Assembly (NCBI GenBank): GCA_031271865.1
Contig: JAISUW010000044.1
Coordinates: 589 to 64,588, forward strand
Length of the DNA: 64,000 bases
Source: Oscillospiraceae bacterium
Lineage (GTDB): Bacteria > Bacillota > Clostridia > Oscillospirales > Acutalibacteraceae
Reading direction: 5' to 3'
Of the stretch, positions 33,087 through 33,156 are shown in pieces (positions within the stretch are counted from its first letter, which is position 1; every line of letters starts with the position of its first letter). Below the pieces are notes generated by a model that was not told the DNA's origin, ran no database searches, and saw only the letters and a list, made by a program, of their open reading frames with translations. Position numbers and translations under genes: made by a program.

Positions 33087-33156
33087 GGCGCCGCATTGCG
33101 GCGCCGATGCCGGCACCGCATTGCGGTGCCCCCGCCGGCGCCGTAATACGGCGTCC
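33087..33156 (+). repeat. REP-like triple-hairpin element, copy A
   Basis: GGCGCCGC-ATT-GCGGCGCC (33087-33105), GGCACCGC-ATT-GCGGTGCC (33112-33130) and GGCGCCG-TAATA-CGGCGTC (33137-33156). The hairpin starts are 25 nt apart, and a CCCGCC linker precedes hairpin 3. Confidence 0.85.

Follow-up and report, generated by a model that had tools for sequence, protein, structure and literature searches.

The question raised by positions 33087–33156 of the window (the whole stretch of DNA analysed here, 64,000 nucleotides of contig JAISUW010000044.1 in assembly GCA_031271865.1 of an Oscillospiraceae bacterium) is what kind of element is formed by three GC-rich hairpins standing in line between the stop codon of a sugar-transporter gene and the start of a glycoside hydrolase gene. 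This array is referred to below as copy A. It quite probably belongs to a family of small non-autonomous DNA elements of the repetitive extragenic palindrome (REP) and bacterial interspersed mosaic element (BIME) type, linked to a REP-associated tyrosine transposase (RAYT). The source assembly comprises 2.40 Mb in 70 contigs with 55.7% GC, the window being part of the contig denoted C35. The genome carries a Spo0A gene, which marks the organism as a spore-former-type Bacillota bacterium.

The hairpin array and its family in the genome

The features of copy A and of the two similar arrays in the window are as follows.

31560–33077, + strand: gene for an MFS_2 (GPH-type) sugar transporter, taken from the list of open reading frames (ORFs), Pfam MFS_2 match with E = 5e-56, TAG stop at 33075–33077
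33087–33105: copy A unit 1, GGCGCCGC-ATT-GCGGCGCC, 8-bp stem with central T (sequence and hairpin scan)
33106–33111: copy A linker 1, GATGCC (sequence)
33112–33130: copy A unit 2, GGCACCGC-ATT-GCGGTGCC, 8-bp stem with central T (sequence and hairpin scan)
33131–33136: copy A linker 2, CCCGCC, of a C-rich type frequent in the family (sequence)
33137–33155: copy A unit 3, of the TAATA type, GGCGCCGT-AAT-ACGGCGTC, six perfect pairs or eight counting one G·T, central A
33209–34882, + strand: glycoside hydrolase family 2 (GH2) gene, 3' of copy A, with Pfam Glyco_hydro_2_N and Glyco_hydro_2_C matches
53981–54049: copy B, three units (53981–53999, 54006–54024 and 54031–54049) between convergent genes
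58818–58884: copy C, three units (58818–58836, 58842–58860 and 58868–58884; sequence and hairpin scan)
58885–58914: ordinary terminator beside copy C, consisting of an A-run, a GC hairpin and a T-run (sequence and RNA fold)

The units of copy A start at an exact spacing of 25 nt, the positions being those of the original prediction, and copies B and C are of the same build. All three arrays lie close behind a stop codon: unit 1 of copy A lies 9 nt past the transporter TAG, copy B starts 6 nt past the stop (53972–53974) of a second MFS_2 transporter gene and copy C starts 2 nt past the TAA (58813–58815) of an AP_endonuc_2 (sugar-isomerase-like) gene.

The whole genome was scanned for hairpins with an A[A/T]T centre and a perfectly paired stem; 270 have stems of at least six pairs, and these group into 139 clusters, 62 of them arrays of two to six units. 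The most frequent form is a palindrome of 19 nt whose stem has 8 bp. When at least eight stem pairs are required next to an A[A/T]T loop, the number is 183, compared with one to four in three third-order Markov genomes, and the majority of units belong to arrays. A two-hairpin pattern is found 53 times in the genome and never for its reversed control. The proposal that the architecture recurs beyond chance is therefore borne out. A position matrix of 193 units gives the consensus G-NNN-CCG[C/T]-A[A/T]T-[G/A]CGG-NNN-C. Its central part CCG[C/T]-A[A/T]T-[G/A]CGG, made up of the loop and the stem pairs next to it, is conserved; the closing pair is G–C, and the three distal pairs co-vary freely.

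The pitch of the arrays is 24 nt in 62 intervals, 25 nt in 47, 26 nt in 12 and 27 nt in six, so that 109 of 131 intervals are of 24–25 nt. The linkers are C-rich and about 5–8 nt long; this tendency is all that remains of a conserved CCC(T)GCC linker claimed earlier. The orientation of a unit can be read from its central base alone. With whole arrays aligned according to the C-rich linkers, the most frequent succession of centres (ATT, AAT, AAT; 20 of the 62 arrays) contains one switch and no strict alternation. Adjacent units usually have unlike stems, and single units recur, GCGGCCGC-AAT-GCGGCCGC being present approximately 20 times. A CRISPR-like organization was considered and rejected, as the repeats vary and linkers of 5–8 nt are too short for spacers.

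Stem variation had been described as compensatory on the basis of a few copies, and the family as a whole upholds this description. With 228 units anchored on the core alone, distal stem positions 6–8 form Watson–Crick pairs in 85–87% of the units, compared with 33–40% when partners are shuffled. Each of these positions shows four pair types, and the family contains 49 distinct perfect stems. Pairing ends abruptly one position past the closing G–C (11% at position 10). G·U pairs amount to 1–2%, and their near absence indicates a constraint on both DNA strands. Such a constraint is more readily expected of a hairpin recognized in single-stranded DNA than of an element acting only as RNA; hairpin-templated correction could be an alternative source of it.

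None of 40 related genomes contains the two-hairpin pattern, whether from the same genus (15), family (nine) or order (16). Across approximately 185,000 species genomes the pattern gave 23 scattered matches and no family array; at a stem threshold of at least seven pairs, 21 of these stretches contain no hairpin and two contain a single one, and the matches are read as chance. The hairpin family is thus private to the species. The same strain was found in the contigs of two DNA runs, one from termite gut and one from a second study, so the organism recurs across samples; no RNA run is listed as containing this DNA. The second-study run contains 89% of the sampled words, with about five single-base differences in 20 kb (window 31500–35000 and C35:46001–66000). 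Its contigs show no differences in copy C and no insertion or deletion spanning copies A, B or C. Apparent joints in these runs were traced to cross-matches between different arrays and were discarded.

The RAYT-type gene and its counterparts in sister species

The original prediction had proposed a search for a RAYT/IS200-like tyrosine transposase. The genome contains one such gene, and arrays of the same hairpins flank it.

C56:7777–8301: gene for P0001, a Y1 HUH transposase of 174 amino acids, the sole Pfam Y1_Tnp match in the genome

Six units of the family lie directly upstream of this gene and three directly downstream, and its TAA stop is part of the TAATA loop in the nearest of the downstream units. 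The gene and its flanking arrays form a REPtron arrangement. By a rough estimate from 62 arrays in 2.4 Mb, the chance of arrays lying within approximately 100 nt on both sides of a given gene is about 1e-5. The neighbours are a membrane-protein gene on one side and a cytidylyltransferase-like (NadD-like) gene followed by rsfS on the other; no tnpB gene adjoins P0001.

P0001 contains the HUH motif NHIHLLL (His66 and His68) and a tyrosine motif Y123-IRD-N127. Y---NP is the signature of class 2 TnpAY1 enzymes, whereas IS200 has Y---Q (PMC6006769); in P0001 the tyrosine is followed by NA in place of NP. An exact look-up of the product returned no record and a word-based search gave only three weak matches, while an exhaustive search gave 7,711 homologues, the nearest being 40% identical. 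All of the 50 nearest homologues have REP_Tyr_transpos as their best match, and 16 of them also match transpos_IS200. A profile built from these 50 matches E. coli TnpA-REP (PDB entry 4er8) with E = 4e-12, compared with 2e-6 for IS200/IS605 TnpA. The AlphaFold2 model of P0001 has a pLDDT of 87.8, and its top 30 matches in the PDB are all either IS200/IS605 TnpA or 4er8 (TM score 0.54–0.56 for the latter).

These fold matches, together with the hairpin nature of IS200 ends and the four to six RAYT-like copies found in some genomes of the genus, could be taken to mean that P0001 serves a live insertion sequence of the IS200 type as its transposase and that the hairpins are solo ends of this sequence or derivatives of the miniature inverted-repeat transposable element (MITE) kind. 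Against this stand the single gene copy, which the hairpins exceed by more than 180 to 1, the class 2 form of the tyrosine motif, the preference of the profile for TnpA-REP by six orders of magnitude, the unanimity of the 50 homologues for REP_Tyr_transpos and a conserved housekeeping neighbourhood that is also present in a sister species (G004; see below). A live insertion sequence is therefore considered to be very improbable.

RAYT-like genes were found in seven of 15 same-genus genomes and in ten of 40 same-family genomes. Most of the full-length sister genes that were inspected adjoin a GC hairpin of their own kind, 19–22 nt in length with a stem of 8–9 bp and a loop of 3–4 nt, and the matching hairpin families are amplified genome-wide in five of the six sister genomes tested (controls gave 0–5). 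A specific hairpin pattern has approximately 106 matches in genome G009 compared with six in G008, and a degenerate pattern has 94 in G013, 59 in G007, 48 each in G004 and G066, and 32 in G001. The arrangement also differs between species. In G009 most copies of the hairpin GGACACGGCG-T-GCCGTGTCC, spread over many contigs, are paired in inverted orientation at a distance of 75 nt, as a doublet resembling a REPIN (REP doublet forming a hairpin); G007 has hairpin pairs at a spacing of approximately 74 nt; and sister species carry GGACG...CGTCC hairpins that are CGTC-tagged in appearance. G004 retains the order membrane-protein gene, RAYT-like gene, cytidylyltransferase gene, with a RAYT that is 40% identical to P0001 and a hairpin that is different; enzyme and hairpin therefore change together. 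Joint change of this kind has been described for RAYT–REP pairs (PMC2817692, PMC3116915, PMC3479197, PMC6006769).

In several sister species a hairpin of the own-species type lies inside a RAYT-like gene (locus L075, 1610–1628 and 1765–1783; G009:C147:7145–7164; locus L102, 1868–1889; locus L109, 1758–1777). This placement may correspond to the in-frame REP within a RAYT gene that is described for TnpAY1 subclass 2.4 (PMC6006769).

A further alternative is that the hairpins are RNA elements selected by the host as stabilizers or translation brakes, and that they spread without a Y1 enzyme by slippage, gene conversion or hairpin-templated repair, the enzyme gene having merely gained copies. Blocks of two or three units have indeed been duplicated in tandem within arrays (for example at C18:36272, C21:4599 and C70:43052), and the first two of these sites speak for such a process, as do the rarity of identical copies at different loci and the strong bias of the arrays towards gene 3' ends described in the next section. 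The scarcity of G·U pairs, on the other hand, indicates that the constraint acts on both strands of the DNA and not just on the RNA. Arrays stand on either side of the sole Y1 gene, and sister species show the same association of a RAYT with an amplified hairpin of its own, the hairpins being different ones. Spread without the enzyme is accordingly regarded as improbable.

If copy A belongs to a RAYT-linked family, P0001, as the sole RAYT-type Y1 HUH endonuclease, would be the enzyme that spreads and maintains the hairpins. It is predicted to bind the hairpin in single-stranded DNA with cleavage and rejoining a short, constant distance away from the hairpin foot, which would explain the constant pitch, the scarcity of G·U pairs and the building of arrays one by one from unlike units. 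Each step of growth may add a single unit with its linker, placed at a constant offset from a hairpin already there.

Several points weigh against a RAYT-linked family. Template switching inside a hairpin as it is replicated can likewise keep palindromes perfect, with no need for selection. Copies that would speak for recent transposition are rare, with only five near-identical pairs among 128 two-unit modules compared between loci, and no polymorphism of empty and filled sites was seen, the only other sample being of the same strain. No GT[AG]G or CGTC foot is present, as there is no conserved tetranucleotide outside the stem in the 193 units and the flanks are merely C-rich. P0001 itself falls below curated cut-offs, scoring 30.2 bits against the 80 required for NCBIfam REP_Tyr_transpos (NF047646) and 22.8 bits against 23 for Pfam PF01797. 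It has the segment WESYRLPEKIIVN where the family consensus is WQxxFxDHIIR, and with this altered segment and NA for NP the enzyme could be inactive. The GTAG foot is recognized in E. coli by the WQxxFxDHIIR segment (PMC6006769, PMC3479197). The altered form of this segment in P0001 is consistent with hairpins that have no foot, and the two may be connected.

Position relative to genes and putative effects

Array positions were derived from crude gene calls made for this analysis, in which approximately 16 arrays fall in the first 300 nt of over-extended ORF calls and are left unclassified. The 34 intergenic arrays comprise 20 in co-directional (tandem) spacers, 13 in convergent spacers and one in a divergent spacer. 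A gene 3' end lies within 15 nt of 25 of the 34, and 15 of the 20 arrays in co-directional spacers are nearer to the upstream stop than to the downstream start. Location at gene 3' ends and rarity in divergent spacers are the published behaviour of REPs (PMC3733652). Of the earlier statement that all copies sit 3' of a stop codon in one orientation, the first part holds for most intergenic arrays; genome-wide, arrays occur on both strands and some are intragenic. The comparison with REP/BIME elements, made on the strength of three copies, agrees with the high copy number, the 3'-end location and the cognate RAYT-type gene.

GC-rich stems just past stop codons are also what ordinary gene-specific intrinsic terminators of similar appearance would present. 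However, no T-run follows the arrays anywhere in the genome, their flanks being C-rich, and arrays are also found between genes that are usually operonic (nrdD–nrdG and sepF–divIVA) and in frame inside genes. The arrays are therefore not intrinsic terminators, and the role as a termination site that had been suggested for them is not retained. Copy C has its own terminator beside it, so the array is not serving as one there, and individual terminators would not be expected to take the form of 183 units with a conserved loop and core. This explanation is most unlikely. The possibility that the arrays split single genes was examined and dismissed, since the ORFs on the two sides come from different families (SepF/DivIVA, NrdD/NrdG activase, GH16/decarboxylase and ThyA/CCA enzyme). 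A different hairpin in the window, CGCCGAAAAATTTTCGGCG at 38414–38432, stands a short way past the end (38367) of a long gene; it falls outside the family and probably represents the stem of an ordinary terminator.

Copy A lies between two co-directional genes, the GPH-type transporter gene and the GH2 gene, as first described. A consensus scan of the spacer between copy A and the GH2 gene identified no promoter-like or terminator-like site, and co-transcription of the two genes is therefore expected; the GH2 gene has an AAAGGAG ribosome-binding site directly ahead of its ATG. The predicted RNA folds of copies A, B and C have z-scores of −4.8 to −7.4 (for copy A, −64 kcal/mol and z = −5.2). 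In copies A and C the lowest-energy fold pairs unit 1 with unit 2, because the units have a common core. An Rfam scan of the window gave two tRNAs only and no match at the arrays. GH2 orthologues in ten same-genus genomes have no transporter gene upstream, and hence offer no empty-site comparison for copy A.

The arrays would be transcribed together with their host genes, and copy A would form stable RNA hairpins without a U-tract. These hairpins might block 3'-to-5' exonucleases and so protect the transporter message upstream, and they might also hinder the terminating ribosome because they lie no more than 15 nt from the stop codon. REPs less than 16 nt from a stop codon lower translation in E. 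coli, as cited in PMC12306157 (its reference 17). Either action would shift the ratio of transporter to GH2 expression, and the most likely effect would thus be post-transcriptional. Such an RNA-level effect at copy A is a tentative proposal, possible but somewhat less than probable.

About 11 arrays, or roughly one-sixth of the total, are embedded well within long open frames that continue across them, each insert consisting of two to six units of eight codons each. One of them lies just past the end of the window.

C35:65231–65298: in-frame array in the RecD2 gene

The insert stands between Pfam domains or interrupts one in RecD2, HydF, CarB, an AMP-binding acyl-CoA ligase, a glycyl-radical enzyme, CinA and the first of two in-frame sites in a YfhO gene, where it interrupts the domain; in an FAD-binding protein the sole Pfam domain lies upstream of the insert. 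Comparison of four genes with their orthologues in five to nine same-genus species gave net gains of 22 residues in RecD2, 18 in the ligase, 12–20 in HydF and seven in CarB. Translation of these arrays in frame might suggest a coding module, with a peptide such as GRNTAA or EPQCGS selected as protein and the intergenic copies left as debris. Most arrays, however, are intergenic, and those within genes are read in different frames and orientations to give unrelated peptides, so that the palindrome is conserved and no peptide is; a coding module can be set aside with near certainty. Intragenic REPs coding for 20–30 residues are known in Opitutus, Rickettsia and Thauera (PMC3733652), and the in-frame copies described here are a further case rather than the first.

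Three long frames outside the window deserve mention in their own right. A 1359-residue frame without a Pfam match (C70:42161–46240, locus L039) contains a six-unit in-frame array made of two copies of a 72-nt block, which codes for an acidic repeat of the form DGRNTAEDSDRNAVAE. The frame of CarB, the large subunit of carbamoyl-phosphate synthase (C37:8659–12735, locus L033; 1358 residues), continues into a DapF (diaminopimelate epimerase) domain; CarB open frames in same-genus genomes are of 1335–1362 residues, and the gene looks like a conserved CarB–DapF fusion. An 882-residue frame (C59:9723–12371, locus L034) joins a xylose-isomerase-like TIM barrel (AP_endonuc_2) to an AMP-binding acyl-CoA ligase, the corresponding frames of relatives having 840–863 residues.

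The preceding observations can be combined into one more far-reaching picture, in which a RAYT that has lost the GTAG-reading segment would recognize the loop and loop-proximal stem of a tag-less palindrome, would add single units of 24–25 nt at a fixed offset, and would thereby generate heterogeneous arrays. Landing at or on stop codons and in frame in essential genes, these would act throughout the genome as brakes on the termination of translation and as a source of new peptide loops in housekeeping enzymes. Taken as a whole, this combination is speculative and rather unlikely.

Relation to known REP–RAYT systems

To our knowledge, REP–RAYT systems have been studied almost only in Proteobacteria, and the way in which the enzyme spreads its hairpins is still unsettled. 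The genus described here, made up of uncultured Clostridia-type bacteria of the termite gut, provides a natural series of RAYT-like genes with differing hairpins, in one case in the same gene neighbourhood, and with differing arrangements: tag-less arrays on a 24–25 nt pitch, inverted doublets 75 nt apart and palindromes with a GACG...CGTC foot. With hairpins and arrangements that differ in this way, the co-evolution of enzyme and hairpin and the rules of recognition become directly testable. The arrays that hug stop codons are clean cases for asking whether repeats tune the termination of translation, and the in-frame copies (RecD2, HydF, CarB and others) for asking whether they are tolerated protein insertions. 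For annotation, the family accounts for over-extended ORF calls and for odd low-complexity inserts in this lineage.

With the REP/BIME elements and RAYT REPtrons of E. coli and Pseudomonas (PMC2817692, PMC3116915, PMC3479197, PMC6006769) the family shares short GC-rich palindromes in hundreds of copies, regular composite arrays, a species-specific sequence and a position behind genes in convergent and co-directional spacers. It also shares a single cognate Y1 HUH gene that lies between the same hairpins, with enzyme and hairpin diverging together. It differs from them in having no GT[AG]G foot, the conserved parts being instead the loop and the loop-proximal stem, and in its unit, a tag-less perfect 19-nt palindrome in which the central base alone marks orientation. 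A further difference is P0001 itself, which scores under the curated family thresholds and in which the part that reads GTAG in E. coli has been altered. The hosts of the proteobacterial REPs also contrast with the present one, a termite-gut spore-former-type member of the Bacillota. REPINs are inverted doublets of the same REP approximately 70 nt apart, whereas the arrays described here join unlike stems on a 24–25 nt pitch. Precedents without a GTAG foot exist in the atypical hairpins of TnpAY1 subclass 2.6 (Bacteroidetes) and in CGTC-tagged REPs (PMC6006769, PMC3733652); the present family has neither tag.

The in-frame copies resemble intragenic REPs and the Rickettsia palindromic elements (RPEs; Di Nocera et al., 2013, PMC3733652) in that the hairpins are in frame and the genes stay open, with 7–22 residues extra, and DNA-metabolism genes are among the hosts, as in that survey (RecD2 here). 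The repeat sequence and the host phylum are unrelated to those of RPEs; most copies of the present family lie outside genes, and the family is linked to a RAYT. The distance of many arrays from the stop codon matches that of the E. coli REPs that stall terminating ribosomes (reference 17 of PMC12306157), a likeness in position only, and the arrays contain three hairpins rather than the one or two of the cases cited there. Functionally, the family thus belongs with the REP/BIME–RAYT systems, from which it is set apart by the missing GTAG foot and by an unusual array design.

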